DNA of 64,000 bases from a phage, in assembly GCA_027262695.1 (NCBI GenBank), contig GCA_027262695.1_4722.1; one strand, 5' to 3'. Below the pieces are notes generated by a model. It ran no database searches. It was not told the DNA's origin and saw only the letters and a program-made list of their open reading frames with translations. Numbering within the stretch: the first letter of the stretch is position 1; each line of letters opens with the position of its first letter. This document shows, piece by piece, positions 4,677 to 23,307 of this stretch. A program made the translations under genes and the position numbers.

Positions 4677-6313
4677 GCGAACAAGAAAAAGAAGCCATTA
4701 AAGATCGGACTGAAGACGTAGCGCGTTCAGAAAGCAATGCTTACGTTTCGTATTCAGAGCCTGTTGGTTCAGAACAAGATCAAGCATCTGAAGCCACGTA
4801 CGAAGAAGCCCCAGCGCATCCACCACTGATTGATTTCTCAAAAGCAACCATACGGTTCCAGTGTGACGATATTCGTCCGAAGAATCCGAAGAAAACGAAA
4901 CGTCAACCGTTGATGTTACCGCTCTATTCACCACGCGTACATACAGCGTTTTATCAGCAGTATATCGCGGATGCGTTGGATACCGTCCAGGACATCATTG
5001 CAAACCGTCAACAACCGACCGAAGAACAATTTGATCGATTCAATAAAGCCGCGATTCAATCGTTCTCTGACGGACAGTATCAGCCGAATGGCGATGCTCA
5101 GGATCGTGCATTAGAACGTAAGGGGAGTCAATGGACGAACGTACCGGTTGACGCTTCCGGCGTTGGACGTGTTATACCGGGTATCCCACAACCGAATCAT
5201 ATCCCCGATGATGTTGAAGCACCGCTGACTGGATCGGACGCGATTTATTTCGCCATTCGTAATACGAAATCAGGTGCTCCGGCTGTGATGCCGTTATGGC
5301 ATAGCGGAATCAAACTGCAATTCAACCCACCATCGAATGAACGCGTTGCGATCATGCATGAGCGTATCGCACGTGATAAAATTCTGGGTGGTCGTGATAG
5401 TGCTGGATTCTTGTTTTCGGCAACGTCGATTATCACCATGAAACACGCGATCGAATTAGCTCTCGAATGCTGTTACATGGCCAACGTTCCGAATCTGGAT
5501 ATTCAGCGTTTAAAAGACATCATCCCCGTTACAGATGTTCCAGCGCTCTTGTTGAACGTGTTGGTGACCATGTACCCCTACGGCTATCCGTACGTACAGA
5601 CCTGTTACCAGAATCCAGATACCTGTGATTACCGTGTTGAAGATATCGTCAGTTTTGCGAAGCTTTATCAAGTTGACAACAGTGCGATTACAAAACGTAT
5701 GCGTCAGATCATGACCGAAGGTCCGGTCATGACGGATGAGCTTTTGCGCGAATACGCGAACGAGCTGGGTGAAACCAATTCCCGTACGTTGGATCTGTCT
5801 GATAACGGTTCGGTGATCATTGAACTTGAAGTCCCGAAAATCTCCCGTCATATCGCCATGGGTGAACGCTGGTTAAGCGATACCTTAGAAGATCTCCGTG
5901 ATATTCTTTCTCGTCCATCGATGACGGAAGAAGAACGTGATCGCGTTATCCGTGAACGTCAGTTCTACAGCTGGATGCGTCAGTACGATGCGTGGATCAA
6001 ATCCATGCATGTGTCAGTAAACGGTACCATGCGTCGTGTAAGCGAAGCAGACACACCGGTCGTATTAGCGCAGTTATCCCGCGACAGCGACTTACGCGAA
6101 CGTTACATTGACGGGTTGATGCAATTCATCGGCGATTCAACCATCGCGCTTGCAGCGATGCCTGCCTGGAAGTGTCCGAAGTGTAACGAGGATATTGCGG
6201 AGAATCTTCGCGATCAGAAATACTACGACTTGATTGCATTGGATGTACCCCAGCTTTTTTTTACCCTAAACTCCGTCCAATCGCTGAGGGAGGGGATGGA
6301 CGCGGTATTCTAA
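4673..6313 (+). CDS. hypothetical protein (546 aa)
   Basis: Long plus-strand ORF translationally coupled to the upstream gene; no confident motif. Confidence 0.6.
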   Translation: MSEQEKEAIKDRTEDVARSESNAYVSYSEPVGSEQDQASEATYEEAPAHPPLIDFSKATIRFQCDDIRPKNPKKTKRQPLMLPLYSPRVHTAFYQQYIADALDTVQDIIANRQQPTEEQFDRFNKAAIQSFSDGQYQPNGDAQDRALERKGSQWTNVPVDASGVGRVIPGIPQPNHIPDDVEAPLTGSDAIYFAIRNTKSGAPAVMPLWHSGIKLQFNPPSNERVAIMHERIARDKILGGRDSAGFLFSATSIITMKHAIELALECCYMANVPNLDIQRLKDIIPVTDVPALLLNVLVTMYPYGYPYVQTCYQNPDTCDYRVEDIVSFAKLYQVDNSAITKRMRQIMTEGPVMTDELLREYANELGETNSRTLDLSDNGSVIIELEVPKISRHIAMGERWLSDTLEDLRDILSRPSMTEEERDRVIRERQFYSWMRQYDAWIKSMHVSVNGTMRRVSEADTPVVLAQLSRDSDLRERYIDGLMQFIGDSTIALAAMPAWKCPKCNEDIAENLRDQKYYDLIALDVPQLFFTLNSVQSLREGMDAVF

Positions 6314-6330
6314 TCGATCCGCGATACGGG

Positions 6331-6735
6331 TTGCATGATGGACAGCTTCTTCGTCAGGACGAGAAGATCTGGCAATTGTTGTTAGCGCGTAAAGGCGATG
6401 GGAGCATGAAGCTGAACATCGAAATGGGTATTGCTTACGATACCATGTTCGGCATGTATGATCGCGTTAGTGATTGGACACCATTGAAATGGGTGGCTCA
6501 GCATCCTGCCGAAGACCCATGGGATCGATTAGGTATTAAACCCCTAATCGAAGACTATGCGCGATTCGGCATCAAGGAGTTCATGACGCTCGACGCGTTT
6601 TTAAAAGCCCCCTATCCCTATGCGCAAACGGTGCTCAAAATCGCACAAGACGAATTACGGAAACGTAGTGCGGTATTGGACGATGATGAGGACAAATTAC
6701 GACGGGAAGAAGAACGTCTACGAAACGGAAGATAA
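6331..6735 (+). CDS. hypothetical protein (start uncertain, non-ATG start in ORF track)
   Basis: 134-aa ORF between the 546-aa gene and the macro-domain gene; first in-frame ATG is at 6406. Confidence 0.3.
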   Translation: MHDGQLLRQDEKIWQLLLARKGDGSMKLNIEMGIAYDTMFGMYDRVSDWTPLKWVAQHPAEDPWDRLGIKPLIEDYARFGIKEFMTLDAFLKAPYPYAQTVLKIAQDELRKRSAVLDDDEDKLRREEERLRNGR

Positions 6736-6736
6736 C

Positions 6737-7246
6737 ATGGCAAGATTTACCAGTTTGATTGGGTTGGATATTTGGGAAACGCCTGCTGATGTTCGGGTTA
6801 TTCCTGTTAACACGGTTGGTGTGATGGGACGTGGTTTAGCTAAACAAGCCGCGGAATGTGTGCCCGGTCTTCTTGAAGCGTACCGTAATCAGTGTCGTGA
6901 TGGATTTAAGGTGGGTGAAGTTGCAACGTATCAAGCTGGGGAAAATGACCATCTCACGTACGTCCTGTTTCCATCGAAAGCGGATTGGCGTGAAAGAACC
7001 CGTCGTGAGTATATCATCGATGGTCTGTTGGCGTTGAAGACCTGGTTATTAGAGACCCAGTTTGAAAGAGACTGCTTCTCATACCGGAATCTTGCCGAAC
7101 CCTTGATTGTTGCTATCCCACCAGTTGGTTCAGGCTGCGGTAATATCGGTTCTGGACAAACCGAAACAATCCAACCACAATGGGTACGCGCACAAATCAA
7201 ACAGTATCTTGCCACCGTGCCAAACGTTCATTTCTACTTGTTCTAA
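6737..7246 (+). CDS. putative macro-domain (ADP-ribose binding/hydrolase-like) protein
   Basis: 170-aa ORF from ATG 6737; VIPVNTVGVMGRGLAKQ glycine-rich loop and later PPVGSGCGN loop resemble macro-domain ADP-ribose binding loops; assignment from motif recall only. Confidence 0.45.
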   Translation: MARFTSLIGLDIWETPADVRVIPVNTVGVMGRGLAKQAAECVPGLLEAYRNQCRDGFKVGEVATYQAGENDHLTYVLFPSKADWRERTRREYIIDGLLALKTWLLETQFERDCFSYRNLAEPLIVAIPPVGSGCGNIGSGQTETIQPQWVRAQIKQYLATVPNVHFYLF

Positions 7247-7695: not shown

Positions 7696-8265
7696 TCAAC
7701 GATTCTTCATCACTTTACCCAGGCTTTCGATATTATCCCAAAAGCGATTTTTACTTGGCGCATCGCCGACGATAACCGACATCAAATCGCGACGTTCACG
7801 ACTGATGATGCCCTGTGATTTCCAGATCACCATCGTCCAGCAAGCTGCCAGAACGAACAGATGGTTGATGCTTGGTTTGGTTTGCGCAATGAACGCAAGC
7901 CATGCCCAGATACCGGTATATACTAATGTCACTAAAAAGAGAGATATTGTCGCAATGACCACAACGAAGTTTTGGACAGCGGGTTGATTAGCGTTATCCT
8001 GAATAGCGGTAAGATCGGGAAGATTACCTTCAACTGAACTCGTTTCATCAATTTCCAATTCTTCGATTTCTTTTCGTGTGTCAGGAGCTAATCCAGCATC
8101 ATCGAGATGCTTTTTTAACCGCTGTATGCTTAATCGTTGACCGACAGGAATGTTGATGTTGTCGTAACTATTAAGCGCATCGACCAGGGAACGACCGTCC
8201 ACCAACACCAAACTCGCAGTACCCATCGTTTGCGGTTTTATTTTGTAAAGGTCTTTTACTTTCAT
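7696..8265 (-). CDS. hypothetical membrane protein
   Basis: 189-aa ORF with two hydrophobic segments (FVVVIATISLFLVTLVYTGIWAWLAFIA and LFVLAACWTMVIW). Confidence 0.5.
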   Translation of the reverse strand: MKVKDLYKIKPQTMGTASLVLVDGRSLVDALNSYDNINIPVGQRLSIQRLKKHLDDAGLAPDTRKEIEELEIDETSSVEGNLPDLTAIQDNANQPAVQNFVVVIATISLFLVTLVYTGIWAWLAFIAQTKPSINHLFVLAACWTMVIWKSQGIISRERRDLMSVIVGDAPSKNRFWDNIESLGKVMKNR

Positions 8266-8286: not shown

Positions 8287-10899
8287 TTAAGCGTCCGGCG
8301 TAAAATCAAAAGGAATGTCCGTACGAATGATATCATAACGTTTTCCGAGGAAATAAAACTCTTCGGGAACCTGGCCTGGAATGATGCTATCACCGATGAA
8401 CTGCGGATACGCCCAGATGTACTGAGTGAGTCCTTCGAACATATCCAGGTTATTTGCGTGGTTACCCATGATACGTTTCCAGAGTTCGCGTTTATACGGT
8501 GTTTTAACATCGAATCCATAAAGCGGTGCAAGATCTTCACCAGGCACAAATCCCAGGTAGTAATGGATCTGACTGACCGGGAAACCAAGCGTGTCTCGCG
8601 GAATGGTGATCGCTTGCTCAGCTTTGGTGACATGCGTTTCAATAATCCAGTCATAACACTCCGAATAGAACCGATCGAATTTCTCTGGATTATACCACGC
8701 TTTGGGAAGGTTGAGTTTCTCCGTGAACGCATTCGACATGATCGTCGGCAAGAACGGAAGAACGCCGGTTTTGATCTGCGTGTATTTCGATTTTACTCGG
8801 TTAACCAGATTCCAGCAACTGTATCCTAACTGTTCGTTACAAAACTCAACGTAGAGATCGTAGTCGCCACCGGATAACGGGTTGTTAATATCACCGATGT
8901 CTGCGGCATATTTGTCAGGATATTGGTTATTGAAAGCCAGTTTGGTTTGGTAGTCGTAGATACACGGTTTGTTGTTCGCCGTGTTGATCCACCACCAGGG
9001 TTCACCTACTTGTACACAAATGTCCTGGACATGAGGATAGATGATATCAGCAAATGCTGTTAACACATCCCCTAACCACGCCATCGCATATTGGTTACAC
9101 GGAGACAGCAACCAAGACGGCGGCGTGTATCCGGTTGCTGCGATATTCCCTTCCCAATCTTGCTGTGCCCACTCGAACGGACACGCTGTACTCATCAATT
9201 CGTAACTTAAACTGATGGTTACAGAGAAATGGTGTTTTGCAGCGAGTGCGGCGAAAGCTTCATGCCATGCAATACAGGGCGGATTTAATACATCCGTGGT
9301 GTTCACCAGTAGCTTACCCGCACTCGGCGTCCAGACGGTGTCGTAGAAATGCGACATTCCAACATAGTGTACTAATTCATCCTGATATCCCGCATACACC
9401 AGGTTCTCGAACACGCGTTCTGGCGTGATGTTATAATGGTCATCATAAGCGGTTATCGCACGAAGTTCGTGTGGTGCGCAGTGGTGACGATTAACGGTCA
9501 TTTCCTGATACACCCCATCGATAGGAAGAATCTCGATGGTTAAACCGAGGTCGATCGGTGTTTCCAGATAGGTCGTTTCAGTCGCATCTTCCTTATAATG
9601 TCGAGAACTCATGCTGAACATCAACGACGTTACCGATTCAAGTTCGATGGGCTCGTCAGCATAGAACCCCGCCATTGCGTCATTAAAATCGATCGTCACG
9701 GTCGCGCTTGTACCGTCTTCGGAGACGTCGGTCGCATATCGGGTTAATGAGATATACTGACGGCTATCGTCTTTGTGTACGACGGTTAAAACCGGCGGGT
9801 TTTCGGTATCCGCAAAGTTACGCTGATCGCCGGTAAACGTGACCTTTGCTTTAAAGATCAAACCGAGTAACGACGTCATGGGATCATACGCGATACAACC
9901 GTGATCCAGCGTATCCGTTGTCCGCCATTCTACCCCGACCAACCCGTTAGCGGTATGACATCGCATATACGCGTTAAGAACCATGTCTTCACTGACGACC
10001 GCGAAGTTCTCTGTTGATTGACCGTTGATAATCCAATACATCGGTTGCCAAAGATTGCGAGTACCTTTTGCATAGCGGTAGGTTGGTGTACCTTTGGGGT
10101 TGCCATTATTAAGATGAAATACGGCAGTACCTTGATAATGGTCGTTCGTATTAATCGGAACGCTATAAGCATCACCGAGATCCGTACGTTCCACTTTTGT
10201 AATAGCGGCATTCTCAAACAACCCACGTAGCGCTGGTAAACCGATATCTGCAGGTGCGTTTTCACGACGTATCGCATCGGCAATACGATGAGCTAAGGCT
10301 GGGTAAATGACTTCACCTTGTTGCAGGTTCGCAAGCCCCGCAAAGCGATCGGGATCGATACCGGCAATTAACAACTCGATATCACCTTTCGTTCTATCGT
10401 CGTGAAGATATTTCAGTCCGGTAAGGTCGAGATGTTGAATAAGCGATAGCAGGTTGTATTTACGGTTTTCGACGGTTAGTTCGAGATCGCCTGCCCAGAC
10501 CAGACTTTCGTCATCGGCTGTTAAAGTAACGGTTTGTCGACCTGTGGTAGATGTCGTCGTTATCTTATTTAATTGCTCTTGCAGGAAGTCTGTTGCAAGG
10601 TCAAAGGCAACGCCGTAGCGATCGGCGACCGTTTGCATGATTTCACGTAACTGGGTATCTTCTTCAATGATAACCTTGATAGGTATTCCCAAGAAAGCTT
10701 TAGCGAGGTCCCGTTTAACCATCGAGACAAATACGGATTTGTAATATCGGCTTCCATCTTTCCCTTTAAAAAGAATGGAGGTTGTTTCGGGTGACGATAG
10801 AACACGTGCAAATTCAACATCGTCGAAGGTAAGAGAAAGTCCGTTTTTCTCGTTGGTCAATCTTAGTATTTCATTCTGCGCGGTTTCATGTAACTTCAT
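8287..10899 (-). CDS. tail fibre/tailspike protein with conserved N-terminal attachment domain
   Basis: 870-aa ORF; N-terminal ~150 aa shares motif VKRDLAKAFLGIPIK and ADRYGVAFDLATDFL with three other genes in the locus; AGAGG RBS. Confidence 0.65.
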   Translation of the reverse strand: MKLHETAQNEILRLTNEKNGLSLTFDDVEFARVLSSPETTSILFKGKDGSRYYKSVFVSMVKRDLAKAFLGIPIKVIIEEDTQLREIMQTVADRYGVAFDLATDFLQEQLNKITTTSTTGRQTVTLTADDESLVWAGDLELTVENRKYNLLSLIQHLDLTGLKYLHDDRTKGDIELLIAGIDPDRFAGLANLQQGEVIYPALAHRIADAIRRENAPADIGLPALRGLFENAAITKVERTDLGDAYSVPINTNDHYQGTAVFHLNNGNPKGTPTYRYAKGTRNLWQPMYWIINGQSTENFAVVSEDMVLNAYMRCHTANGLVGVEWRTTDTLDHGCIAYDPMTSLLGLIFKAKVTFTGDQRNFADTENPPVLTVVHKDDSRQYISLTRYATDVSEDGTSATVTIDFNDAMAGFYADEPIELESVTSLMFSMSSRHYKEDATETTYLETPIDLGLTIEILPIDGVYQEMTVNRHHCAPHELRAITAYDDHYNITPERVFENLVYAGYQDELVHYVGMSHFYDTVWTPSAGKLLVNTTDVLNPPCIAWHEAFAALAAKHHFSVTISLSYELMSTACPFEWAQQDWEGNIAATGYTPPSWLLSPCNQYAMAWLGDVLTAFADIIYPHVQDICVQVGEPWWWINTANNKPCIYDYQTKLAFNNQYPDKYAADIGDINNPLSGGDYDLYVEFCNEQLGYSCWNLVNRVKSKYTQIKTGVLPFLPTIMSNAFTEKLNLPKAWYNPEKFDRFYSECYDWIIETHVTKAEQAITIPRDTLGFPVSQIHYYLGFVPGEDLAPLYGFDVKTPYKRELWKRIMGNHANNLDMFEGLTQYIWAYPQFIGDSIIPGQVPEEFYFLGKRYDIIRTDIPFDFTPDA

Positions 10900-10921: not shown

Positions 10922-11563
10922 TTAGATGTACTGCTTACCGCCCACGAAGGACGTTAGCCAGTTCCCGCTGACGAGCTGTGACGCCCAACCTGGAACAGCT
11001 TTACCATTCTGGCTCATGATGTTACCACACCAACCAGGGAATCCGGGACGGATGTAATAGAAAGTTAAATTGTAGAGATGGCAATTCCATACCGCAACGT
11101 TATGTTTACCAGAAACCGCTTTAAAGACAAACGCGACAGGTAAAGGAGACGATAACAATTCGGTCACAGGGACAGCTGACCAGTTCGCATTCGCGTTCCA
11201 TGGTTGCCATGTATGGCTACGCGAGTCGCAATATACGTTACCGTTGTTACCGCGCCCACCCGCATTCCACCACAGCGACGGACTCATGTTCTTAAGTGAG
11301 GTAAATTGCTGCGGTGGAATATTAGGAATAATAACAGGGTTGGTACCTTGCCCATGTTTCTTTTCTTTTGCGTTCACATACCCGCTTATCGATTCGAGGT
11401 ATTTGACACCAGGATAATTATTCTGGACTTGTGTCGCAATATCACGAACATCGAACGTCCAGCAGATCATGGTGTTGTAGTAAGCATCGGTGTTGTCGTA
11501 CCATGCGTTACCATCTTGTAAACGTGCGCCACTATTCGGTGTTTTATCTGTGTTTATAGCCAT
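10922..11563 (-). CDS. hypothetical protein, paralog pair member with conserved C-terminal module
   Basis: 213 aa; C-terminus RPGFPGWCGNIMSQNGKAVPGWASQLVSGNWLTSFVGGKQYI shared with 11573-12340. Confidence 0.55.
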   Translation of the reverse strand: MAINTDKTPNSGARLQDGNAWYDNTDAYYNTMICWTFDVRDIATQVQNNYPGVKYLESISGYVNAKEKKHGQGTNPVIIPNIPPQQFTSLKNMSPSLWWNAGGRGNNGNVYCDSRSHTWQPWNANANWSAVPVTELLSSPLPVAFVFKAVSGKHNVAVWNCHLYNLTFYYIRPGFPGWCGNIMSQNGKAVPGWASQLVSGNWLTSFVGGKQYI

Positions 11564-11572
11564 AGTGTTGTC

Positions 11573-12340
11573 CTATACTGCGATGATTGAGATATCGGAT
11601 GCCGGATGTGTGTTGCCATCAGGTGGTACGTACAGAAACACCCACAGATAAAACAGTAGCTTCTCTAACTTCAATTTAATTGAAGTTAGATATTGTTTAC
11701 CTCCAACAAACGACGTTAACCAATTACCTGAAACAAGTTGCGATGCCCAGCCAGGCACTGCCCTACCGTTCTGGCTCATCACGTTACCTGCCCATCCCGG
11801 AAAACCCGGTCGGAAAATATATACTTGAATATGTGTTAAAGCGTTATCATTACCACCGCCAACAGCAACGTTACGACTCCCAGATGACGGGAAATATTCT
11901 TTTAAGAACAGAGGATCGGTTGCTAATAAAGATGCGGGCCAAGGGTTCGCGGATGCATCAACATCGAATTCGGTCCATCGCCATTTACGTCCCGTGTTGA
12001 ACCATGTCGATGTACCACCACCCCTCACGGCAAGATTGCGCGCATCACGGACATTATAAATTGATTCGATGTTACGCCATCCACCTTTTGCAGCGTTTGC
12101 CGCATAGCAAATCGCATTACCACCATTCTTCTTCTCGTAAACGGTTCGTTTGATATGAACACGGTCGATGAACGCTTCACCGTATTTGTTGACGAGTGTT
12201 TGTGCAATATCACGAAGATCGTGCATGTGAAAAGCGATGTCTTCGTTATGGAACCATGTTGTCTGGTTCCAGACGGTACCGTTTGGTTCGGCACACATCG
12301 ATCGGATATTGTTGCGTTGATTAATCGCGATAAAACCCAT
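11573..12340 (-). CDS. hypothetical protein, paralog of 10922-11563; conserved stop position lost
   Basis: Start set at ATG 12340 (AGGAACGAGG RBS) rather than the ORF-track start that reads through a hairpin; C-terminal 43-aa extension relative to paralog. Confidence 0.5.
   Translation of the reverse strand: MGFIAINQRNNIRSMCAEPNGTVWNQTTWFHNEDIAFHMHDLRDIAQTLVNKYGEAFIDRVHIKRTVYEKKNGGNAICYAANAAKGGWRNIESIYNVRDARNLAVRGGGTSTWFNTGRKWRWTEFDVDASANPWPASLLATDPLFLKEYFPSSGSRNVAVGGGNDNALTHIQVYIFRPGFPGWAGNVMSQNGRAVPGWASQLVSGNWLTSFVGGKQYLTSIKLKLEKLLFYLWVFLYVPPDGNTHPASDISIIAV
11664..11690. repeat. AT-rich perfect palindrome between the two paralog genes
   Basis: tctaacttcaatttaattgaagttaga. Confidence 0.75.
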
Positions 12341-12395
12341 TGTATACCTCGTTCCTATTCTCAAAAAGGAAATTTCATACGATGACGCCATAGCA

Positions 12396-12425
12396 GCTCC
12401 TCCTTCCCTTACGGGTTGGAGGAGC
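12396..12425. promoter_or_regulatory. GC-rich stem-loop, variant of the family
   Basis: gctcctccttcccttacgggttggaggagc between lipoprotein stop and next start. Confidence 0.55.
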
Positions 12426-12433
12426 ATACTTAA

Positions 12434-12940
12434 TTACTTGCTGATAACCTCAACGGAATTGGGATCAGCGATCAATGCGCGGTCGGTAGAACAATTGAAG
12501 AAGACCATGCCGACACCATCGCCGTTCGAGTTCAGGGTTGAACTTGCGTAAGACAGGGTTGGTTTATTCATGCGGTAGAAGCGTTCGCTGGTTGTGGTAT
12601 TGAACCCCAGATCAACGTAGTCTTTCACCGTGGTATACAACTGTGTGGATTCGAAAACGGTTACCGGAGAGTCAACGGTAAATTGACTACCTTCATCCAC
12701 AACCAGAACTTTATCGTTCCAGATTTCAGTGGTTGAAAACTTCGGTTTCCAGTGTTCGAATTCCTGGGTTGCGCCCCAGCAAGAATAAACAGCGAGATTG
12801 CTGTTCTTCTCAACAGGTTTCAACCCCACCAGTTGTGTCAGGTCTTTATCCAGGTTCGGTAAGCCTTCCAGCGTAGCGCACCCACCCAGAGAAAGTACCA
12901 TCAACATACCAAGAACGATCGCGCAGAGTTTTTTCATCAT
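12434..12940 (-). CDS. putative lipoprotein
   Basis: Start at ATG 12940 with AGGAA RBS; N-terminus MMKKLCAIVLGMLMVLSLGGC (signal peptide plus lipobox-like LGGC); immediately downstream of long tail fibre gene. Confidence 0.55.
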   Translation of the reverse strand: MMKKLCAIVLGMLMVLSLGGCATLEGLPNLDKDLTQLVGLKPVEKNSNLAVYSCWGATQEFEHWKPKFSTTEIWNDKVLVVDEGSQFTVDSPVTVFESTQLYTTVKDYVDLGFNTTTSERFYRMNKPTLSYASSTLNSNGDGVGMVFFNCSTDRALIADPNSVEVISK

Positions 12941-12988
12941 TAGATTTCCTTGTGTGTTAACGGAAGTGACTTCCATAAGGATTGATGA

Positions 12989-15900
12989 TTACTTTTTGAG
13001 CGCTTTAAGTTCTTCTTCCAACGCTTCCACTTTTGCCGTAAGCTTCTGTACTTGTTTGATTAATGGAACCACCAAACGTTCGTACATAACACCTTCAGCG
13101 ACGAGTCCGTTAGAAGAAACGATGGCGGGGTCATCTTCTTCGGTTGCATCACGCCAGTGCACGTATTGTGGTGCTATCTCACCAACCTCTTCGGCAATCA
13201 ACCCATACCAACCCCAATCCTTGTTGTCCGCTTCGCAGGTAGAACGATACCAAACAGGACGCATCTCCAATACTTTATCCGCTTGTTCATCCGTGATATT
13301 CTCGATATCTTTCTTATAGCGACGTGACGACGTTGAACGGAACACATTGTTGATCCCAGCAACAGGACTGATATACATATTAGCCCCGCTGGTTGTAGTG
13401 CTAATGTCCCATACCGCAAATCCGCCGTTACTCCCATTTTTTACTACCAACGTATTGGCAATAATGTCCAGGTTATTGTCGTACCCGGTTAACTGGTTTT
13501 CCGTTACATAACTGGATAGGTTAACCGAGTAGTTCTTACTGTTATAACAACGACGCCATCCTGGGCTGTTGGTGCTGCCGTTATAGTTGTCGTAGCTATA
13601 AATGAACTCGGAGTTGGTTTTCGCACCACTGACGGAAGATGTGGTTGCGGTGGTAACACGGATGGTGTAGTTTGTCATCCCGAAGCTAACGACCTCGATA
13701 ACAGCGCCAGCCAGAGGGATGATCCCGCATTTGGTTTCACTGTCTGGGATGTATGCGCTATCGGCAGCAGCGAAGGAGCAACGTGCGACCCAAGCACGAG
13801 TGTTGAAGGCTCCATGGTTTTGCAGTAATGTGATAAACGAGGACGTTGTAATCGAGCTGTTATTATCACCGGTGATCAACCAGCCGGTTGGACATGCAGT
13901 TGCACCAACGTTTTTCGCTGTTAGCGTGATGTTCTGTGATCCGTCGAAGGCTACGCCGCTAATAGTACGCGCAGTCTGTAGCTTCGTCGCCGTTGCTGCG
14001 TTCCCTGACGTGTTCTGGTTCCCTGCTGTGTTAACACCCGGCAGATCGATGTTTGCACTACCATCGAAAGACACCCCACCAATCGTTCTTGCCGTTTGCA
14101 ACTTCGTTGCGGATGCCGCATTCCCTGTGGTGTTTTGGTTGCCTGTTGTATTCACACCCGGGATACTATCCTTAGATGTGTAGATCTGTGCCCATTCCGA
14201 CCAGTTCGCATCGGTTGTATCGCGACGTGAACGTAAATAAGCTGGAGCGTGCGCACCCGAGGTACCCGACCATCCAATGAGGATTTCGCCTTCGCCGACC
14301 GATGAAGCACCTTTAAGATGAACAACGTTACCGTAGGCTGTAGGGTATCCGTTATTGTACGCTTCATACATCTGGATACCCGTGTTGCTGCCCTGGGTCG
14401 CATTAGCTAAAGCGGTGACCCGTCCCTTGGAAGCGAGCGCGTTAATGCTAAAGCTAATATCAGTTGTACCATCAAAGGCGACCCCATTAATCTTCCGTGC
14501 TGTTTGGAGTTTCGTGGCAGTGGCCGCATTACCAGAGGTACTCTGATTACCTGCTTTGTTCACGCCTGGTAAATCAATGTTGGCGGTTCCATCGAAGCTG
14601 ACGCCGCCTATTGTTCTTGCTGTAGCGAGTTTCGTTGCTGTGGTTGCAGCATTACCAACCTTTAACCATTCGCCCCATGGACCATCGATGCCGTTCCATG
14701 ATGCTGTTAAACTACGTACGTAAATATTTCCGGTACGTACAGTGTAACGTTGCGTTCCACCGAACTGTCCAGCTGGGAGCACTTCGATATAACCTACCGC
14801 GTTTGCTTCAGGGAAATTGTGGGCAACATCAGCATTCGTTGATGTTTGTTTAGACCAAATACCTACGGACTCCTCTACCGGACCGTAGGTATCCAGATTT
14901 GCGTCGGTGGGGAGCTGTCCTCGAAAACGTCGGAATAATGATGCTGTTAACCCCAACGTTGTTTGCATTCCTTGAACGCTTGACTGCGATAAAAGCGCCC
15001 GCGCTGTCGACGTAATGGCAGCTAAAGCAACCTTGTCGGCTCCGGTGAAAAATGGGAATTTGTTCGCCGAGGTCGTTAAGCCTGAAAGGGCTGTTAGTAA
15101 TGCGTTAAGGGGTTGTTTTCCGGCTAACGCGTTAGTTATCGTCGTTGCGAAATTAGGATCGTTGCCTAAAGCTTGAGCCAGCTCATTAAGCGTATTTAGC
15201 GCTTCTGGAGACGAGTCAATCAGCGACGCGATAGCACGCATTACAAATTCCGTGTTGGCAATCTGTTGACTGCTATCATTCTCTGCAGCCGTGGGCGCTG
15301 CTGGGATACCGGTGAATACAGGGTTATTAAGATCTGCCTTGAGGGCGATGAGACGTCTAAGCGCTTCAACATCGACTCTCAGGTTTTCCCATCCGACGAG
15401 ATAACCTTCACCGGTTGTGTGATAACGGTTGTACCAAAAATCGCCATTAACACCGAAAAAGAATATTCCCTTCTCTTCGTATTGTGGGTCAGAACCGTTC
15501 CGCGATGAGCTAATGTATTTTATTTCGATAAGGCCGTCTAATACCACTCCTGGGATAATTTTGTCGTTTCCATGCGATTGTGATACCTGGTACACCCCCG
15601 GCGTTGCGGTTCTAATCCACGTTAAGAATTCCGATGTTCCAGCGTTACCGCTAAAATGCTTGACGTCGGTGAGTATCGCACCAAAACCGAACATACCTGG
15701 TAAAGCAACTCGTCCATCGGTACGGTCACGAATATCTGTCGCAACAACGGGCAATTGTTTACGAACGTCATTAACCGCTTTAGGTGTTGCTGATTTTGTC
15801 TCGTCGTCGCTATCAATATCATTGCTCAGGATGGTCAGTCCTCGAGTATCTGTGGTTGCATCAGGAAGAAACGCATTATCCAACACCTTAAGCTGTATTG

Positions 15901-16306
15901 CATCCGTGTTACTAACAGCAACATACACCTGGCAGTTAAGAACGCTGGTTGCGCCTTCGGTGGGCACAGGCTTATATCTTTCTGGTGCGCTGCAGACGGC
16001 GACCAGAACACCTTGATCGTCATACAGACCGATCTCACGTACCCAGAACCCACCTTGACTGGTGGGAATAATGCCTTCAACAATAATCCGGGTTGTGTCG
16101 TCAACATCAATGCGGATGTTGGAAACTTCCCCACGATAAACTTCGTGTATAAGTGCCGTTTGGCTAGCATCGGGGGTTGGTGTAGAGCCGTTACTGTCAC
16201 CAACGGCAAAATGCGTGATTTTTAGTTTCTCACCGTCAGGAAGTAATGCTGCGGTGATACGTTCTGCGCCTTTATCGGTAATAACCGTTTTATATGTTGT
16301 ACTCAT
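12989..16306 (-). CDS. long tail fibre: P2 gpH-like N-terminal domain, tandem fibre repeats, C-terminal S74-type intramolecular chaperone
   Basis: 1105 aa; N-terminus MSTTYKTVITDKGAERITAALLPDGEKLKITHFAVGDSNG matches tail-collar fibre proteins; repeated ATKLQTARTIxGVxFDG units; C-terminus YGLIAEEVGEIAPQYVH with coiled-coil tail typical of the autocleaving chaperone domain. Confidence 0.8.
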   Translation of the reverse strand: MSTTYKTVITDKGAERITAALLPDGEKLKITHFAVGDSNGSTPTPDASQTALIHEVYRGEVSNIRIDVDDTTRIIVEGIIPTSQGGFWVREIGLYDDQGVLVAVCSAPERYKPVPTEGATSVLNCQVYVAVSNTDAIQLKVLDNAFLPDATTDTRGLTILSNDIDSDDETKSATPKAVNDVRKQLPVVATDIRDRTDGRVALPGMFGFGAILTDVKHFSGNAGTSEFLTWIRTATPGVYQVSQSHGNDKIIPGVVLDGLIEIKYISSSRNGSDPQYEEKGIFFFGVNGDFWYNRYHTTGEGYLVGWENLRVDVEALRRLIALKADLNNPVFTGIPAAPTAAENDSSQQIANTEFVMRAIASLIDSSPEALNTLNELAQALGNDPNFATTITNALAGKQPLNALLTALSGLTTSANKFPFFTGADKVALAAITSTARALLSQSSVQGMQTTLGLTASLFRRFRGQLPTDANLDTYGPVEESVGIWSKQTSTNADVAHNFPEANAVGYIEVLPAGQFGGTQRYTVRTGNIYVRSLTASWNGIDGPWGEWLKVGNAATTATKLATARTIGGVSFDGTANIDLPGVNKAGNQSTSGNAATATKLQTARKINGVAFDGTTDISFSINALASKGRVTALANATQGSNTGIQMYEAYNNGYPTAYGNVVHLKGASSVGEGEILIGWSGTSGAHAPAYLRSRRDTTDANWSEWAQIYTSKDSIPGVNTTGNQNTTGNAASATKLQTARTIGGVSFDGSANIDLPGVNTAGNQNTSGNAATATKLQTARTISGVAFDGSQNITLTAKNVGATACPTGWLITGDNNSSITTSSFITLLQNHGAFNTRAWVARCSFAAADSAYIPDSETKCGIIPLAGAVIEVVSFGMTNYTIRVTTATTSSVSGAKTNSEFIYSYDNYNGSTNSPGWRRCYNSKNYSVNLSSYVTENQLTGYDNNLDIIANTLVVKNGSNGGFAVWDISTTTSGANMYISPVAGINNVFRSTSSRRYKKDIENITDEQADKVLEMRPVWYRSTCEADNKDWGWYGLIAEEVGEIAPQYVHWRDATEEDDPAIVSSNGLVAEGVMYERLVVPLIKQVQKLTAKVEALEEELKALKK
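13880..14640 (-). repeat. two blocks of degenerate ~66-bp tandem repeats inside the long fibre gene (phage tail fibre repeat units)
   Basis: Recurrent DNA units such as ccatcgaa(a/g)g(a/c)cac(c/g)ccacc(a/t)at.gt.cttgc and corresponding protein repeats NIDLPGVNxAGNQxTSGNAATATKLQTAR. Confidence 0.6.
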
Positions 16307-16312
16307 GGCGTT

Positions 16313-16840
16313 TTATCCCGGGTAAATAGCGATGACATCACCAATGACAGTTGCCGCACCAGCGTATAAATAAGCTGGAGATGCCTCACGTTGGTTTGTC
16401 ACGGTAAGATCCAATTGTCCACGCCAAACCATGGAGGTATTCGCGATGGGAATCGAGATCTTCTTGGATGTGTCGTCACGAAAATCAATGACAGTAGCAA
16501 GGATAGCTGAATCAAAATCGACATCGGTTTCAAAGATGAATCCGTACTGATCTGAAATAGCTTGTATAACCGCTCTTATAGTTGTTGTTTCAACCGACTC
16601 CAAAACGATTTTTATCGGTATCCCTAGAAACGCTTTCGCGATATCACGTCGTGCGTAAGTGATAAAACTTTCACCACACCACCTTGTTCCTTCATTTGCT
16701 GTGACGATCACTTTTGCCCTGTTAGCACCAGAACTCCCATCCAGGGTTAAAGTGAGATCGGAGTTACTGAACACGCTACCGTTACGTTGGTTTATCAACG
16801 TAATCAGTTCGTCTTTCCACGGCAGGTAAAGTGAACGCAT
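16313..16840 (-). CDS. tail fibre N-terminal attachment-domain protein (putative adaptor)
   Basis: 175 aa from ATG 16840 (GGAGG RBS); contains shared motif YARRDIAKAFLGIPIKIV; stop 6 nt before start of long fibre gene. Confidence 0.55.
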   Translation of the reverse strand: MRSLYLPWKDELITLINQRNGSVFSNSDLTLTLDGSSGANRAKVIVTANEGTRWCGESFITYARRDIAKAFLGIPIKIVLESVETTTIRAVIQAISDQYGFIFETDVDFDSAILATVIDFRDDTSKKISIPIANTSMVWRGQLDLTVTNQREASPAYLYAGAATVIGDVIAIYPG

Positions 16841-16996: not shown

Positions 16997-18751
16997 TTAT
17001 GCCGCTACATACCCAGGCCAACGTTCTCTTGGCCAGTTTGTTGCGCCCTGTCCAACGTTGTCCTTACCAGAAGTTACATTACTTACGTCCCAACCACTAA
17101 GATCCTGGTTAAATGCGGTGTTGTTGCGCATCATGAGGTCGATCCTACGTAACGATTGGGTATTCCAGCCGGAAATGTCTTGGTTGAATGCCGCGTTGTA
17201 AGCAAACATGTTAACAACGTCTTGTAATTTTGAAGTGTTCCAGCCGCTTATATCGCTATTGAACTGCATGTTCGAGAACATACTGCTAGCGTTGACAAGA
17301 CTACCTGTTTTCCAGTTAACCAGCTTGTCCCCATCAAGTGCATCGCAGCTACTGAACATGTAACTCATGTCGTTAACTTTGGATACATCCCATTTATCTA
17401 ACCCGTTACCAACGAACTCGTAACAAGCTTGGAACATCCAGCTCATATCGGTAACCTGGCTCACATTCCATTTGCTAAAGTCGAGGTTGAGTTTTGCGCA
17501 TCCGGAGAAGGTTTTATACATACTGGTGATACGACTAACATCCCATTCTTGAATGTTAGGATCATTAAGTATAGATAAGAATTGGAACAATTCGTCTAAC
17601 GACGTCCATTTCTCTGGAATACGGTTTGGTACTGTACGGAGCGATGAAAGGTTATTGGTTGACGGAGAGCGGAACATACCGTTATCCCAATTTACGATTT
17701 CCGTAATGTTGTACCCACGGATCGTTTGGCGTCCATTACCATTATACACAGACCCTGTTGCAGTTATTGTATATTCGTTTGTATCAGCATACGTATGTTC
17801 AGCCTGTGTAGGCCACTCACCTATTACATCCCTATTCCCATCACCCCAATCGATGGAAATATCTGTCCAACCATCAAGATCTAGGGTAACGGTCCCGCCA
17901 TTGGTCTTCAGGACGTATTTACCTGCATTGTCGGTATAATAACAAACAATCATCGCACCGTACAGGTTACCAATTTGCCAATCATCCTTTTGAGTTACCG
18001 CGATATGTGCTGTGCCACGTTGTAGGAAAAGAACCGTACGGTTCTCGTCAGTCTGTAATGCGGTTAGTGCCTGAGTCTTATCATCGTCGGTAATTTCACC
18101 GGCTTCCACTAAAGCACTTAACATTCTTTCGAAGTATTCGATGGGTAATTGGCGTCCTACAGACATATCAACTGATGGAACAGCGAGATCATCCAATGCG
18201 GCGGCAGTTGCAAGCACTAATGATCCATTGGTGGTGCCTGTTTCTTGGAGGTAACGCAGTCCCGTAATCTGGTACGCTTGAATGATTGTAATCAGATCCA
18301 GCGTATCGTTAATGACCTGTACTTGTAAATGTCCAGACCAAACATAGCTGCTTTCAGCAATCGGTAATTCGACCGACTGAATACCCGATGTTTCAAAACT
18401 GATCTTCTTATTAAGATCGGCTTCCAGGAAATCAACCGCGAGGTCGAAATTTATACCGTACTTTTCAGCGATGGAATCTATGATGTTCCTGAAAGCAACA
18501 TCGGTACTTACGATGAATCGTAAAGGGATTCCTGTGAACGCATTAGCAATATCTCGACGAACATACGTAAGTGATTGTTCGAAGAAATAGGGACTGTTAT
18601 CTCCAGGTTTGATGGTTACCTGACACATTTCAGGATGTTCAGATGGGATGAACGATTCAAATTTAACATCGGATTCCTTCAACGAAAGCATGTTCTTCCG
18701 GTTTACCAGCGCCAGAAGATCGGCTTTCCATCCAGGATAAACAGTAGACAT
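16997..18751 (-). CDS. tail fibre protein with C-terminal DUF285-type (WxVSxVTxMxxMF) repeats
   Basis: Start at ATG 18751 (GGAG RBS); N-terminal shared domain (YVRRDIANAFTGIPLRFIV); C-terminal repeats KWNVSQVTDMSWMF, DISGWNTSKLQDVVNMF, DLSGWDVSNVTS. Confidence 0.65.
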   Translation of the reverse strand: MSTVYPGWKADLLALVNRKNMLSLKESDVKFESFIPSEHPEMCQVTIKPGDNSPYFFEQSLTYVRRDIANAFTGIPLRFIVSTDVAFRNIIDSIAEKYGINFDLAVDFLEADLNKKISFETSGIQSVELPIAESSYVWSGHLQVQVINDTLDLITIIQAYQITGLRYLQETGTTNGSLVLATAAALDDLAVPSVDMSVGRQLPIEYFERMLSALVEAGEITDDDKTQALTALQTDENRTVLFLQRGTAHIAVTQKDDWQIGNLYGAMIVCYYTDNAGKYVLKTNGGTVTLDLDGWTDISIDWGDGNRDVIGEWPTQAEHTYADTNEYTITATGSVYNGNGRQTIRGYNITEIVNWDNGMFRSPSTNNLSSLRTVPNRIPEKWTSLDELFQFLSILNDPNIQEWDVSRITSMYKTFSGCAKLNLDFSKWNVSQVTDMSWMFQACYEFVGNGLDKWDVSKVNDMSYMFSSCDALDGDKLVNWKTGSLVNASSMFSNMQFNSDISGWNTSKLQDVVNMFAYNAAFNQDISGWNTQSLRRIDLMMRNNTAFNQDLSGWDVSNVTSGKDNVGQGATNWPRERWPGYVAA

Positions 18752-18789
18752 AAGCACTCCAATCATGGGGCGGTTACCGCCCCCATCAG

Positions 18790-21700
18790 TTAAATTGTCG
18801 GTTTCACGTCGCGTAATAGGGCAATATAATAGCCTAATCCTCGGAGGATCTCCCCACTCCAGAAACCAAAATACATTCCGTCTCTGCCGAGATTAGCACT
18901 ATCTGGTGCAGGACTCCACCCACCATTCATTGCGTCATCAACGGTGTAATGATTGATGTAGTTTTCAGCGATCTCGTTATAAACGTTAACAGCAACAGGA
19001 TAGCCTTTATCGTTGGGATGTCCGTACAACATCGCTAACGACGCACCCGCCAGCCATAATCCTGCCATGTGACCAGTAAAGTCATTCGGGATAAACGCAG
19101 GCGGTTTCTCCATTGGAAAATCCGTTGGTGATTGATAAGCATTTTCCTGCTGGAACGTATATAAGAAATCGATCCAATGACTGATGTAATGGGTTAACTT
19201 CTCAGGGACAGTTAATTTACGATCGATCAATCCCGCGTAAAGCCGTACCGCTGAAAAGAAAGCCCGCGGCTGATAACCAGACCATGCTGTTTGATCGCCG
19301 AAGTGGTACATCGTAAAATCATTGACCTTTGATCCGCTTGGCGCATCCCAACGATCCCACACGTACGCACTCGCACCCGGCCCTAAAACACCGAACTTCT
19401 GATAGTACCATTGCTGTGAGTCATACCAGAAATCCACAACATTCTGAATCATGAGGTCACGACGTTCAGCCGAAACGTCCATATCCAGGAAGACCCACGG
19501 ATGCTGGTAACCCGGATAAGGCTGACCACGCCAGCTGTCGAAAGTCGGTGCATTAGGGATATAGTTGTTCGAGAACGGAATAATACCTGGGGTATAAGGT
19601 AGTGGATCAAGACGTTGGTTAACAATCGTGCAGTCACCAACACGTAATGTTCCTTCCGCTTCAAAGGTTGCTTTCAATGTAAACAGCATGGTATATCCGT
19701 CATCCGTGGCGTAAGTTGATGGTGGATTGTTGATAGCGTAAAGCTTAAACATACCTTCAGCAACACCGCTGTCATCTGGCAAGAACAGAATTTCGGTTGA
19801 ACCATCACCCCATACCGGCGCAGAAGGTTTAGGATCGGTATCAGCATGATTCGGTTGATATCCTGAAAGTGTCCAACCATCAGCAGCGAGCGTTAAGGTA
19901 CTTCGTGCTGTAGTGGTGGGGAGCATCTGCCACCAGCGCCAACCATTTGCATCTTCTACACGGACGTTGTAATCGATCGATGCGAAATAACTGATCTGCC
20001 TTACGATCTGCTTTGCCGTTGGATTGAATTCAAATTGCCCGCCTGCCGCAGTAAGCTGCGCTTTTAAGAACAGCCCATCCCAGGAATCTTCCACAGCTTC
20101 GCTGAACTCCGTGGTGATTGCCACGTCATCCTTCCAGCCGACTTTATCCGCCGATATCAATACAGAACCTGTAACAGCATCACCGGTTGGCGTTGAAGCT
20201 TCATCAACCGCATCAGCAGGAATCAACGCGCCTATTTTGAAATCCCATTCTTTCGGTTCAACGCTGGAAGGTAATACCAGCTTGTACGTTTTGGCTTTCG
20301 CTTCGGTTTTGTCCAAAGAAAGCGATAGTGAGATCTCAACCGGAATTGCAACGCCCGCTGCATCTTTACCTCCGCAGGTTACACGAAGAATTGAATCGCG
20401 ATTGACGCGGAACGGAATGGCCTGCTGTTCAAGGTAAATCTGTGCCGAAGATGCTTGAATCACGATCCAACCGTCAACATCACGTGTGATCGTGAACGGT
20501 GCTTTCGATGGATAGGTATACGTGTAAGCGATACCGTCGGTGTCGTAACGATCGGTTCCTTTTACCTGGCGGAAGAACTTGTCATTCGCATCAATGCGGG
20601 TATATTCCTCAATCGTAAACAAAGATGCCTTATACGCTTTCTGATAGCGCTCCTGCTGCGTTAAACGGTATAAGGTGTAGGCTGCTTCACAAAACCACTG
20701 TTCAGCGTCTGATGCGTTTCCCATGTAGTCTCTGGTGACCGGTACCTGAATTGGTCGGTTATGCTGACACTCATTCGTTTTAATGAGATATCCGCCATAT
20801 TCAACAGGTACACGGGGTGCCCATGCAACCAAATAAGAACCGGTAACGGATTTATCTTTGAGTACGATAGTCCCTACCTCGTCATCCGCACACGCCTCAA
20901 GATCTTCACCGTCCGCTGTTACGTAACGTTTTGTCCGCAACGCCACTTTCTCAATAGGGAATACGGTACCTTTTGTATTCCAGTCAATCGTCCCATTTTC
21001 ATTCGTCTTGAACACATCCGCATTTAGATTTTGCCATCCAAGCTTACCCTCATAGACCTGAACAACAAGATCCATGTATTCCCCGAACGTTGGTGAACCG
21101 TGAGGGATCTTACCGATTCCGTTGGTAAACACAACCGCGGTATCATGGAAACCACCATGTGTTGGGTAATCGTCTTTCGCAAGCGGGTAATGAGCCAACA
21201 CCGGCTGTTTCCCATTAACAATCCAGTTTGCTATCCAACGTGTTGGGGTATCCGGTGGTTCAAGTCCTGCATAGAACGCTTTTACGTACGCGTCGAACGA
21301 TGATTCCGCTAACGTAAGAAAATGGGCTTTAAGCTGGGTATCGTCGGTCGTATGACTGAAAATGCTTGCACCCAGGATTAACAACGATTGTCCTTCCGTT
21401 GTCGCGTCGCCATCCGGTTGTGCTTCCTGACGCGTTGCTGCGATAAAGTGACGGTTATTCACCAACACACCGCTTTCATTCAAGACGTAATGATCGGTTT
21501 CAGGATCGGTAAACGTTCCTGTATTTCGCGTTAAGAAGCGAGCGTGGCCGTAACCAACGAAATTCACCGGAGACGCTGTGATCATCCATTTACCGATAAG
21601 TTGTGCGACGTCCTTATAACGTTCCGACGCCGCGATCTGTTTTACGTACCAGTCTTGTCGATTGAACGTCCAAAGCAGGAAGTAATACGTCTTATTGATC

Positions 21701-22398: not shown

Positions 22399-23220
22399 TT
22401 AATCGTAACTAAAATAAAGCTGGCTGCTAATTCCGCTATCTGGATGCGGTTTTAACACGAGTACGGATTCACCAAACGATGGTTTTACGGGTGCTGAGGG
22501 ACCGCTCGTGATACCGTTATAAACGACGGTAGCGTTCGTGACAAGTTCCCACGCAAGGGTATAATCCATAGACGACAATGCCGTTGCTAAACAGTAAGCT
22601 GCACGTCCTGTCGGTGATGTTCCAGCCGCGAGCCGACGTATCGCACCTTGTATAGGCACATCAAGTAATATCCCGTAGGTACTTAACGCGTGAATACCGG
22701 ATTGCGCTTGATCTTCAGGGTAGTACGATGTTAACGGTGTTTTCACCATAAACAACTCGGTGAGGTTATTGCTCTGTGCTTTCTTCGCAACGAATTGGAA
22801 AGTCCCATACCACGATTCTGAGGCGTTGGCACGAACAGCAATTGAAACCGTCTTCTCTTGGGTTTCGAATACGATCGATTGGGTTAACGTATCCTGATCG
22901 AATATTGCTAAATCAATCACTAATCCGTATTTTTGAAACAGCTGGCTTAAACAATCCGCGACGGTGGTTGCGTTAGCGACGATAACATAAGGTTGATGAT
23001 GAATGAACAGTTTACTGATATCGCGTCGTTGGAGATAAATGGAGACAGGATCGTCGGAATAATACAGTGATTGTGGCGCGGGATTAATGGACAAGCGTAT
23101 ACGTCCAGAGTTACCGTACCAGTCAGGCGTTATCGTGATATCCGATAAGGTTAGCGGTTGGTGTATATGTTGATTTAATCTAGAGAGTACATCCTCTTGC
23201 CATGTTCGTTCTGGGTACAT
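22399..23220 (-). CDS. tail fibre-locus protein with shared N-terminal attachment domain
   Basis: Start set at ATG 23220 (GAGG RBS); motif QRRDISKLF and FQKYGLVIDLAIFDQ align with the other fibre N-termini. Confidence 0.5.
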   Translation of the reverse strand: MYPERTWQEDVLSRLNQHIHQPLTLSDITITPDWYGNSGRIRLSINPAPQSLYYSDDPVSIYLQRRDISKLFIHHQPYVIVANATTVADCLSQLFQKYGLVIDLAIFDQDTLTQSIVFETQEKTVSIAVRANASESWYGTFQFVAKKAQSNNLTELFMVKTPLTSYYPEDQAQSGIHALSTYGILLDVPIQGAIRRLAAGTSPTGRAAYCLATALSSMDYTLAWELVTNATVVYNGITSGPSAPVKPSFGESVLVLKPHPDSGISSQLYFSYD

Positions 23221-23307
23221 TTTTTGACCTCGTAACTTATAAATATAACGGAGGACTGAATTCATACCATGGGAGAGGCGAAAAAAAAAAACGAAAAAAT
23301 AGGAAAA

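Follow-up and report, generated by a model that had tools for sequence, protein, structure and literature searches.

A lipoprotein gene beside the tail fibre of Goslar-like jumbo phages is conserved across unrelated fibre types

Downstream of a long tail fibre gene, a 64,000-nucleotide stretch of phage DNA (contig GCA_027262695.1_4722.1 of assembly GCA_027262695.1; hereafter the window) carries an open reading frame (ORF) at positions 12434-12940 of its minus strand. We conclude with high confidence that this ORF encodes a secreted lipoprotein and that it is a genuine, strongly constrained gene of nucleus-forming jumbo phages related to Escherichia phage vB_EcoM_Goslar (Goslar). The protein is independent of fibre type and does not co-vary with fibre specificity, which argues against a factor that masks the receptor of the neighbouring fibre. 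A general role in exclusion or envelope protection is plausible. Our tentative best explanation is that the lipoprotein alters the envelope of the infected cell, independently of the fibre, so that further phage attack fails.

Results

The ORF encodes a secreted lipoprotein with a conserved export signal

The gene and its parts are as follows.
12434-12940, minus strand: lipoprotein coding sequence, stop codon included, 168 aa; ortholog of Goslar gp88 and member of PHROG 9559
12878-12940, minus strand: signal peptide and lipobox, residues 1-21; Cys21 codon at 12878-12880, Ala at +2, Thr at +3
12434-12877, minus strand: mature lipoprotein part; residues ~22-45 a low-confidence tether, ~46-151 a predicted beta-barrel
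12941-12977, minus strand: conserved 37-nt leader TATGGAAGTCACTTCCGTTAACACACAAGGAAATCTA; 5' edge TATG (12977-12974), contains the Shine-Dalgarno sequence AAGGA

The ORF starts with an ATG at 12940-12938, is followed by another in-frame ATG at 12937-12935, and ends with TAA at 12436-12434; its Shine-Dalgarno sequence lies 6 nt 5' of the first ATG. The N-terminus, MMKKLCAIVLGMLMVLSLGGC followed by ATLEG, has a basic n-region, a hydrophobic core of 13 residues and the lipobox L-G-G-C that contains Cys21. We defined a lipoprotein signal as a basic n-region, a hydrophobic h-region and a lipobox of the form [LVI][ASTVIG][GAS]C about 15-35 residues from the start. A six-frame pattern scan found this signal in no other ORF of the 64-kb window, and a scan of the annotated genes of the 237-kb Goslar genome matched only the homologous gene. 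By a PROSITE-type rule, the lipobox is present in 29 of 30 homologs, with the variants LAGC, LSGC, LGGC, LTGC and others, and the +2 residue of these 29 is A, S, V, K, T or Q, never Asp. Because the pattern is unique both in the window and among the annotated Goslar genes, because it recurs in 29 of 30 homologs, and because peptides of the Goslar ortholog are seen by mass spectrometry, we consider it more than a chance match. An earlier reading of this DNA made from the letters alone (the sequence-only reading) had described, on the same strand as the fibre, a protein of 168 aa that has a signal peptide and a lipobox-like LGGC, and the ORF, the signal scan and the homologs all agree with that description. 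It had placed the gene 49 nt after the fibre stop; the measured gap is 48 nt (12941-12988).

The signal peptide is the sole hydrophobic segment of the protein, and there is no C-terminal transmembrane domain (TMD). The mature protein of every homolog contains exactly two further cysteines, and in the family alignment C54, C150, G84, R120, Y122, S134, G140 and G142 are invariant. We infer lipidation, outer-membrane sorting, a disulfide, and the fold and function considered below. After export, Cys21 would be acylated by the host enzymes Lgt, LspA and Lnt. Under the E. coli Lol rule, lipoproteins without Asp at +2 are sorted to the outer membrane; because the +2 residue is Ala, the Lol pathway would deliver the protein to the inner leaflet of that membrane.

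An AlphaFold prediction from a 7-sequence alignment reached a pLDDT of 35 and was discarded. Repeated with 25 sequences, the prediction reached a pLDDT of 76.8 (85-94 in the core) and places an all-beta domain at residues ~46-151, after a low-confidence tether of ~25 residues. A Foldseek search against the PDB returned nothing at E<=0.001, and a search against viral models returned family members together with a few weak, lipoprotein-like analogs from phages. Cap15, OmpW, nitrobindin and the lipoprotein barrels of NHBA, TbpB and fHbp are named among the structure results, none as an informative match. The structural analog gp51 of Xanthomonas phage DIBBI was set aside as uninformative: it is secreted, and its gene stands in a block of small hypothetical genes that is part of neither the lysis cassette nor the tail genes. 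The model suggests a small periplasmic barrel and little more. In the cell, the ~25-residue tether would let a small beta-barrel, stapled by a disulfide, hang into the periplasm.

The family is confined to jumbo phages of Enterobacterales and is under purifying selection

From 5 to 25 kb the window matches Goslar with 87.7% identity over 73%. Goslar belongs to the nucleus-forming jumbo phages, in the family Chimalliviridae, and the window is that of a Goslar-like chimallivirus. The lipoprotein is 99% identical in amino acids to Goslar gp88 (QBO63881 / YP_009820773), and its gene sits in a near-identical DNA block shared with Goslar that runs from 12337 to exactly 12977. Outside this block Goslar differs, in that it carries a P1-S-like fibre and a separate Caudo_TAP assembly gene upstream and is devoid of the 272-aa gene found 3' of the lipoprotein gene in the window. 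The gene itself is already known, since Goslar carries it as a 'hypothetical protein'.

Residues 1-153 match the profile phrog_9559 (E 7.8e-22), a PHROG without assigned function. A word-indexed search found six clusters of relatives. About ten true relatives, and no bacterial homolog, came out of an exhaustive profile search over 1.84 billion representative proteins, and a second profile search raised the total to about 25 family clusters. The matches P0035, P0040, P0042, P0043, P0045 and P0046 were rejected as spurious, being eukaryotic repeat/LRR proteins that align at the signal peptide or at short repeats. All members with a long contig on record lie on contigs of ~235-260 kb, from Escherichia, Salmonella, Shigella, Erwinia and Proteus material; within this set, only jumbo phages of Enterobacterales with genomes of this size carry the family. 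The orthologs Goslar gp88, SPN3US gp159 and Erwinia phage Kwan gp173 (99%, 33% and 31% identity, respectively) all keep the lipobox and both cysteines. UniProt automatically names the family orthologs 'Lipoprotein', and none has an assigned function. Searches of Pfam, NCBIfam, PADLOC and PDB sequences gave no match to the lipoprotein, and the label 'DUF2846' on one NR record was reproduced in 0 of 25 family members. The family is not known to be related to any characterised phage lipoprotein.

The ratio of nonsynonymous to synonymous substitution rates (dN/dS) of the lipoprotein gene is 0.024-0.049, compared with 0.03-0.09 for neighbouring genes and 0.16-0.23 for the DUF7941 adaptor. These values come only from relatives found by homology (our loci L012, L013, L014 and L005); in L023-L032, which were retrieved by exact-sequence look-up, dN is 0 by construction. 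The lipoprotein gene is under purifying selection, at or below the dN/dS of its neighbours. As a separate observation, complete Goslar-like contigs of ~236-260 kb occur in assemblies of isolates that bear the labels E. coli, Shigella flexneri or one of several Salmonella serovars, which suggests carriage or contamination of cultures by virulent phages.

The lipoprotein does not follow the type of the neighbouring fibre

The gene upstream of the lipoprotein is the following.
12989-16306, minus strand: tail fibre, 1105 aa; conserved N-terminus, and a distal part that ends in a Peptidase_S74 intramolecular chaperone, unlike the Goslar fibre

In Pfam, this fibre matches Phage_tail_fib (3.5e-42), Phage_fiber_2 and the C-terminal Peptidase_S74 chaperone. 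By exact-sequence look-up, at least 65 blocks in the assembly collection contain the identical 168-aa lipoprotein, and ten distinct contexts were returned. In these contexts the upstream fibre has 1105, 1107, 1299, 1302, 1322 or 1413 aa, and the gene 3' of the lipoprotein is absent or has 218, 235 or 272 aa. We compared fibres across the exact-match loci together with Goslar and locus L005. The fibre (12989-16306; L005, L012, L023-L032) is a mosaic: its N-terminal ~180-300 aa are 71-85% identical between genomes, and its distal part belongs to four unrelated classes that differ in chaperone strategy (intramolecular S74, a Caudo_TAP gene, a DUF4376 gene, or none). The four distal fibre/chaperone modules found beside the lipoprotein (S74, '...GATNEGY', P1-S-like with Caudo_TAP, and DUF4376) do not align with one another. 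Beside the DUF4376 module the lipoprotein has 86% identity, and with each of the other three it has 98-100%. Because the lipoprotein stays unchanged across unrelated fibre tips, it does not co-vary with fibre specificity. The 37-nt leader behaves in the same way: it is kept whatever gene stands upstream, the match to Goslar stops exactly at 12977, and the fibre cassettes have their recombination breakpoints just upstream of the leader.

These observations bear directly on the idea of an Llp-type protein that would bind the receptor used by the adjacent tail fibre and mask it; the sequence-only reading had named the protein a candidate for receptor masking or exclusion. The product is a lipoprotein, its gene lies 48 nt after the fibre gene, and T5 Llp is a precedent for the arrangement. 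Against it, three unrelated fibre tips are found with an identical or near-identical protein, and a fourth with an 86% homolog; the SPN3US and Kwan homologs are solitary genes between oppositely oriented genes, with no adjoining fibre; and the protein has no similarity to Llp. Genome-wide screens identified the Goslar receptor as the glucose II of the lipopolysaccharide (LPS) outer core and assigned no outer-membrane protein. Because that receptor is an LPS outer-core glucose, a lipoprotein in the inner leaflet could not cover it. Together with the lack of an early-promoter motif near the gene (see below), this makes masking of the adjacent fibre's receptor improbable. What survives of the analogy with Llp is that the product is a lipoprotein, that its gene lies inside a host-recognition cluster, and that the SPN3US homolog is scored as non-virion; the masking of the adjacent fibre's receptor does not.

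The protein is abundant in particle preparations and is most likely not part of the virion

A preprint on the Goslar virion reports mass spectrometry with label-free quantification (LFQ) on CsCl-purified particles (10.64898/2026.04.21.720040). HOV27_gp088 (YP_009820773.1) was identified there by peptides that include ALIADPNSVEVISK and DLTQLVGLKPVEK (10.64898/2026.04.21.720040), both of which belong to the lipoprotein. Coverage was 77.8% from 20 peptides, and the estimates range from 491 to 1158 copies per virion-equivalent, with a median of 737; gp88 is placed by the authors among the abundant proteins without predicted function, and they do not remark on its lipoprotein signal (10.64898/2026.04.21.720040). 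Among the peptide rows listed, none falls in residues 1-31. The gap is what removal of the signal and acylation of the N-terminus would be expected to produce, and is not proof of either. By the time of lysis, large amounts of the protein have been produced.

At face value, the copy number describes a true virion component, of which each particle would hold about 700 copies; this number exceeds those of PhuZ and chimallin, which are known contaminants, several-fold. However, gp88 is not in the 28-protein atomic model from cryo-electron microscopy, and the authors report that nucleus fragments and PhuZ filaments co-purify with the particles (10.64898/2026.04.21.720040). The same sample is rich in host outer-membrane proteins, with at least 19 OmpA, 29 OmpC and 17 OmpF rows, compared with at least 32 rows for the major capsid protein, among the rows listed. 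In SPN3US particles from two CsCl gradients, gp159 yielded 0, 0 and 3 peptide-spectrum matches and was scored 'Non-virion'. In addition, a conserved export and lipidation signal is incompatible with assembly in the cytoplasm. We therefore regard a structural role in the particle as very improbable and read gp88 in the Goslar preparations as an abundant late outer-membrane lipoprotein carried on membrane debris; most likely, it is not part of the virion.

A variant of the virion explanation would take the ~700 copies as a real association, with the lipid-anchored protein or patches of membrane travelling with the particle and playing a part in entry. Here gp88 might be held by the DUF7941 filament cloud or by the fibres, and might handle host membranes as the genome enters the early-infection lipid vesicle. 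We know of no lipidated component of a tailed-phage particle, and we give this variant the least credence of all the explanations considered.

A possible envelope protection independent of the fibre

The explanation that we tentatively prefer is that the lipoprotein changes the envelope of the infected cell so that further attack fails, whatever fibre the phage carries. The change could amount to superinfection exclusion or make the cell resist lysis-from-without. Its point of action would be a step that all these phages share, such as peptidoglycan penetration or one that involves a conserved envelope protein, and it would involve no masking of the receptor for the adjacently encoded fibre. 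In its favour are the conserved export signal, the abundance of the product, the low dN/dS and the place of the gene in the host-recognition cluster of every lineage examined. Moreover, known non-spanin outer-membrane lipoproteins of phages that are encoded beside receptor-binding genes, such as T5 Llp, are exclusion factors.

Several observations weigh against this explanation. We know of no exclusion phenotype for any family member, and searches with Pfam, PADLOC and hhalign revealed no homology to known exclusion proteins or defence families. Co-infection is frequent in Goslar infections. In SPN3US-like phages, the lipoprotein gene lies beside peptidoglycan-hydrolase genes, which fits a lysis-linked role equally well. 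The remaining difficulty is timing. The most enriched 8-mer upstream of genes in Goslar non-coding DNA is TATATTAC, with 7 of 10 copies upstream, and its extended form, ATACAA-N7-8-TTTCACGRCTATATTAC, probably serves the virion RNA polymerase as an early promoter. In the window, this motif occurs on the minus strand at 531, 29322 and 61663 only, and no TTTCACGRCTATATTAC-type motif lies near the lipoprotein gene. The gene stands within a run of co-oriented structural genes, and the Goslar annotation places a terminator only after gp84 and none before the lipoprotein gene. Since there is no nearby early motif and no terminator before the gene, the gene may be expressed late, which would suit early exclusion poorly; a late or continuous pattern is more likely than an early expression like that of llp, which in T5 has its own annotated promoter.

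The leader itself adds little on this point. The late promoters of phiKZ have T-3ATG+1 as their sole defining feature (PMC7598289), and the TATG at the edge of the leader is, alone, too frequent to be called a promoter. A candidate hairpin in the leader was rejected: its z-score is -0.4, and sequence variants break its pairs without compensation.

The same envelope location would also allow other kinds of manipulation, such as stabilisation of the outer membrane in a long infection, damping of envelope stress or vesiculation, or inhibition of a periplasmic host enzyme. The high copy number suggests a stoichiometric role, and the limitation of the family to phages of Enterobacterales and the strong purifying selection are in keeping with such functions; nothing speaks for any of them specifically, and we consider this group of explanations rather unlikely.

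A possible role in lysis

The main rival explanation makes the lipoprotein a lysis partner, that is, the outer-membrane part of a non-canonical spanin-like, outer-membrane-disrupting or lysis-timing system. It would accumulate late in the outer membrane and act once the peptidoglycan is degraded. Several findings are compatible with this. The protein is the sole lipoprotein among the annotated genes of the Goslar genome and is abundant at lysis, and the Serratia chimallivirus PCH45 has a predicted Rz-like spanin. A GH108+PG_binding_3 endolysin-like gene lies within ~1.5 kb of the lipoprotein gene in SPN3US and Kwan, as does a Peptidase_M15_3-like gene in SPN3US and L011. Finally, Goslar gp247 resembles an inner-membrane spanin (i-spanin), with an N-terminal TMD and a coiled coil, and has no embedded or adjacent lipoprotein ORF of its own.

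By contrast, no i-spanin gene adjoins or overlaps the lipoprotein gene in any lineage: its neighbours are the fibre and a soluble 272-aa protein in the window, and those in SPN3US, Kwan and L011 are without TMD. gp247 is the only i-spanin-like gene of Goslar, lies ~136 kb from the lipoprotein gene and lacks homologs in the other lipoprotein-carrying phages. The secreted Hydrolase_2 and multi-TMD genes of Goslar-like phages are ~13 kb away. The mature part (147 residues, 4.1% Pro) is Pro-poor and is predicted to fold into a beta-barrel, not a short Pro-rich chain; its lack of a C-terminal TMD means that it is not a unimolecular spanin (u-spanin); and it matches no spanin family of Pfam or PHROG. 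We judge a role in lysis to be about as unlikely as the other envelope functions, and continue to favour envelope protection.

Two further observations concern lysis genes. gp247 (MK327938 234664-235215; L010 41664-42215) has a basic N-terminus, one TMD, a coiled-coil periplasmic part and C-terminal cysteines. As a spanin partner it was set aside, having no homologs outside Goslar in the phage collection; no Goslar membrane protein has a PHROG spanin or holin annotation. In the window, the ORF at 25634-26128 (minus strand) encodes a cell-wall hydrolase (Pfam Hydrolase_2, 4e-17) with an N-terminal signal or signal-anchor-release-like segment. Upstream of it, small ORFs extending to ~27050 encode homologs of Goslar gp100 (3 TMD) and gp101 (2 TMD), and the region from 25634 to ~27050 is a probable lysis cluster.

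The gene is a stable resident of the host-recognition region

The other genes around the lipoprotein are as follows.
16313-16840, minus strand: DUF7941 protein (DUF7941 1.3e-16), 175 aa, homolog of Goslar gp91, directly upstream of the fibre
11573-12391, minus strand: variable accessory gene, 272 aa from MASSYEIS, Shine-Dalgarno sequence GGAAGGAGGAG; paralog of 10922-11563
10922-11563, minus strand: 213-aa paralog, Goslar gp87; C-terminal ~40 residues in common with the 272-aa protein
8287-10899, minus strand: DUF7941 and NCTSP TIM-barrel protein by domain matches, 870 aa, Goslar gp86, a proposed host-recognition protein
7696-8265, minus strand: membrane protein, 189 aa, Goslar gp85, hydrophobic at residues ~94-128; near the end of the co-oriented run

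Five DUF7941 paralogs lie in one co-oriented cluster (22399-23265, 18790-22386, 16997-18766, 16313-16840 and 8287-10899), one of them with DUF285 repeats and one with the NCTSP TIM barrel. A DUF7941 gene is found near the lipoprotein in every lineage examined. In Goslar-like phages the 175-aa protein is encoded upstream of the fibre and the 870-aa protein downstream of the lipoprotein; in a relative with 49% identity (L004), DUF7941 genes flank the lipoprotein on both sides; in the most divergent member (L011), DUF7941 modules lie directly upstream; and in SPN3US (gp160) and Kwan (gp172), a DUF7941 gene is the divergent neighbour. According to one proposal, DUF7941 proteins make up a host-recognition filament cloud on the peripheral baseplate (Goslar structure preprint, 2026). 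Given that proposal and the constant presence of DUF7941 genes, the lipoprotein gene is a stable resident of the host-recognition region, though indifferent to the fibre present.

The remaining neighbours are more variable. Elsewhere, the counterpart of the 272-aa gene is absent or has 218, 235 or 255 aa; this gene is present, absent or variant between genomes without co-variation with fibre class, and Goslar retains a ~54-nt remnant of its 5' end. The 272-aa and 213-aa paralogs share ~35% identity and the C-terminal block GFPGWxGNxMSQNGxAVPGWASQLVSGNWLTSFVGGKQY, and no family match was found for either. The 189-aa membrane protein is kept in L004. In locus L031 (8350-8779), the 870-aa DUF7941/NCTSP gene is cut into fragments of 88 and 58 aa, and the lipoprotein and the other neighbours are intact. 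In SPN3US-like relatives, two radical-SAM genes adjoin the lipoprotein locus (L011 10616-13954; L003, Kwan, 12152-15578; L002, SPN3US, 4880-6995), and Kwan and L011 also carry there a ~67-aa Cys-rich peptide (...CAGSCSWTCSGSCSRSASG). The combination looks like a cluster for ribosomally synthesized and post-translationally modified peptides in jumbo phages.

Discussion

We know of nothing on how enteric nucleus-forming jumbo phages handle the outer membrane, be it in exclusion, in lysis-from-without or on exit. The single lipoprotein that these phages encode is very abundant and among the most constrained genes of its neighbourhood, and it offers one clear and cheap target for studying exclusion and lysis in this phage family. 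Its probable identity as an outer-membrane lipoprotein reinterprets the gp88 signal of the Goslar proteome as co-purifying membrane. More generally, a lipoprotein gene beside a fibre gene does not alone mean receptor masking of the Llp type.

Comparison with known systems

The protein resembles T5 Llp and Cor in being a lipoprotein with a class-II signal peptide, from a virulent phage, encoded beside host-recognition genes. It differs in size, its 168 aa being set against a 77-aa Llp precursor, and in sequence: hhalign aligns 11 columns of the signal peptide only, no Llp chain is among the PDB sequence or fold matches, and no exclusion family of Pfam or PHROG matches the lipoprotein. On both counts the sequence-only reading, which had called the protein larger than and unrelated to Llp, was right. 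Further, llp has its own annotated promoter, and no early-promoter motif stands near the gene described here. Llp is matched to the receptor of its phage's receptor-binding protein (RBP), whereas this lipoprotein is invariant across fibre types; adjacency to an RBP gene holds in Goslar-like genomes and not in SPN3US and Kwan.

Like the outer-membrane (o-)spanins of the Rz1 type, the protein would be an outer-membrane lipoprotein of a lytic phage, made late and the sole lipoprotein of its genome. Unlike them, it has no adjacent, overlapping or embedding i-spanin gene, it is a predicted barrel in place of a short Pro-rich chain, and its gene lies outside the putative lysis cluster of Goslar-like phages. 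From unimolecular spanins of the T1 gp11 type it is set apart by the absence of a C-terminal TMD.

Periplasmic inhibitors of peptidoglycan hydrolases of the MliC, PliC, PhiA and ACP kind differ as well. None of the 25 members matches the MliC Pfam family at E<=1, the MliC/PliC motifs SxSGAxY and YxxxTKG are missing from the family alignment, the predicted barrel is larger, and hhalign gives a probability of 0.6% once the signal peptide is trimmed. T4 Spackle is not a lipoprotein, and is a functional parallel as an inhibitor of a peptidoglycan hydrolase.

Compared by description only, the parallel that bears on envelope protection is the accessory superinfection-exclusion protein of phage Rtp. 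A preprint reports that this protein binds LptD on its periplasmic face, and does not describe it as a lipoprotein. Any target of gp88, LptD or another, is pure conjecture. The gene of the Rtp protein likewise adjoins the RBP locus, and what it reportedly acts on, a conserved and essential protein of the outer membrane reached from the periplasmic side, represents a type of fibre-independent target that the lipoprotein could share.

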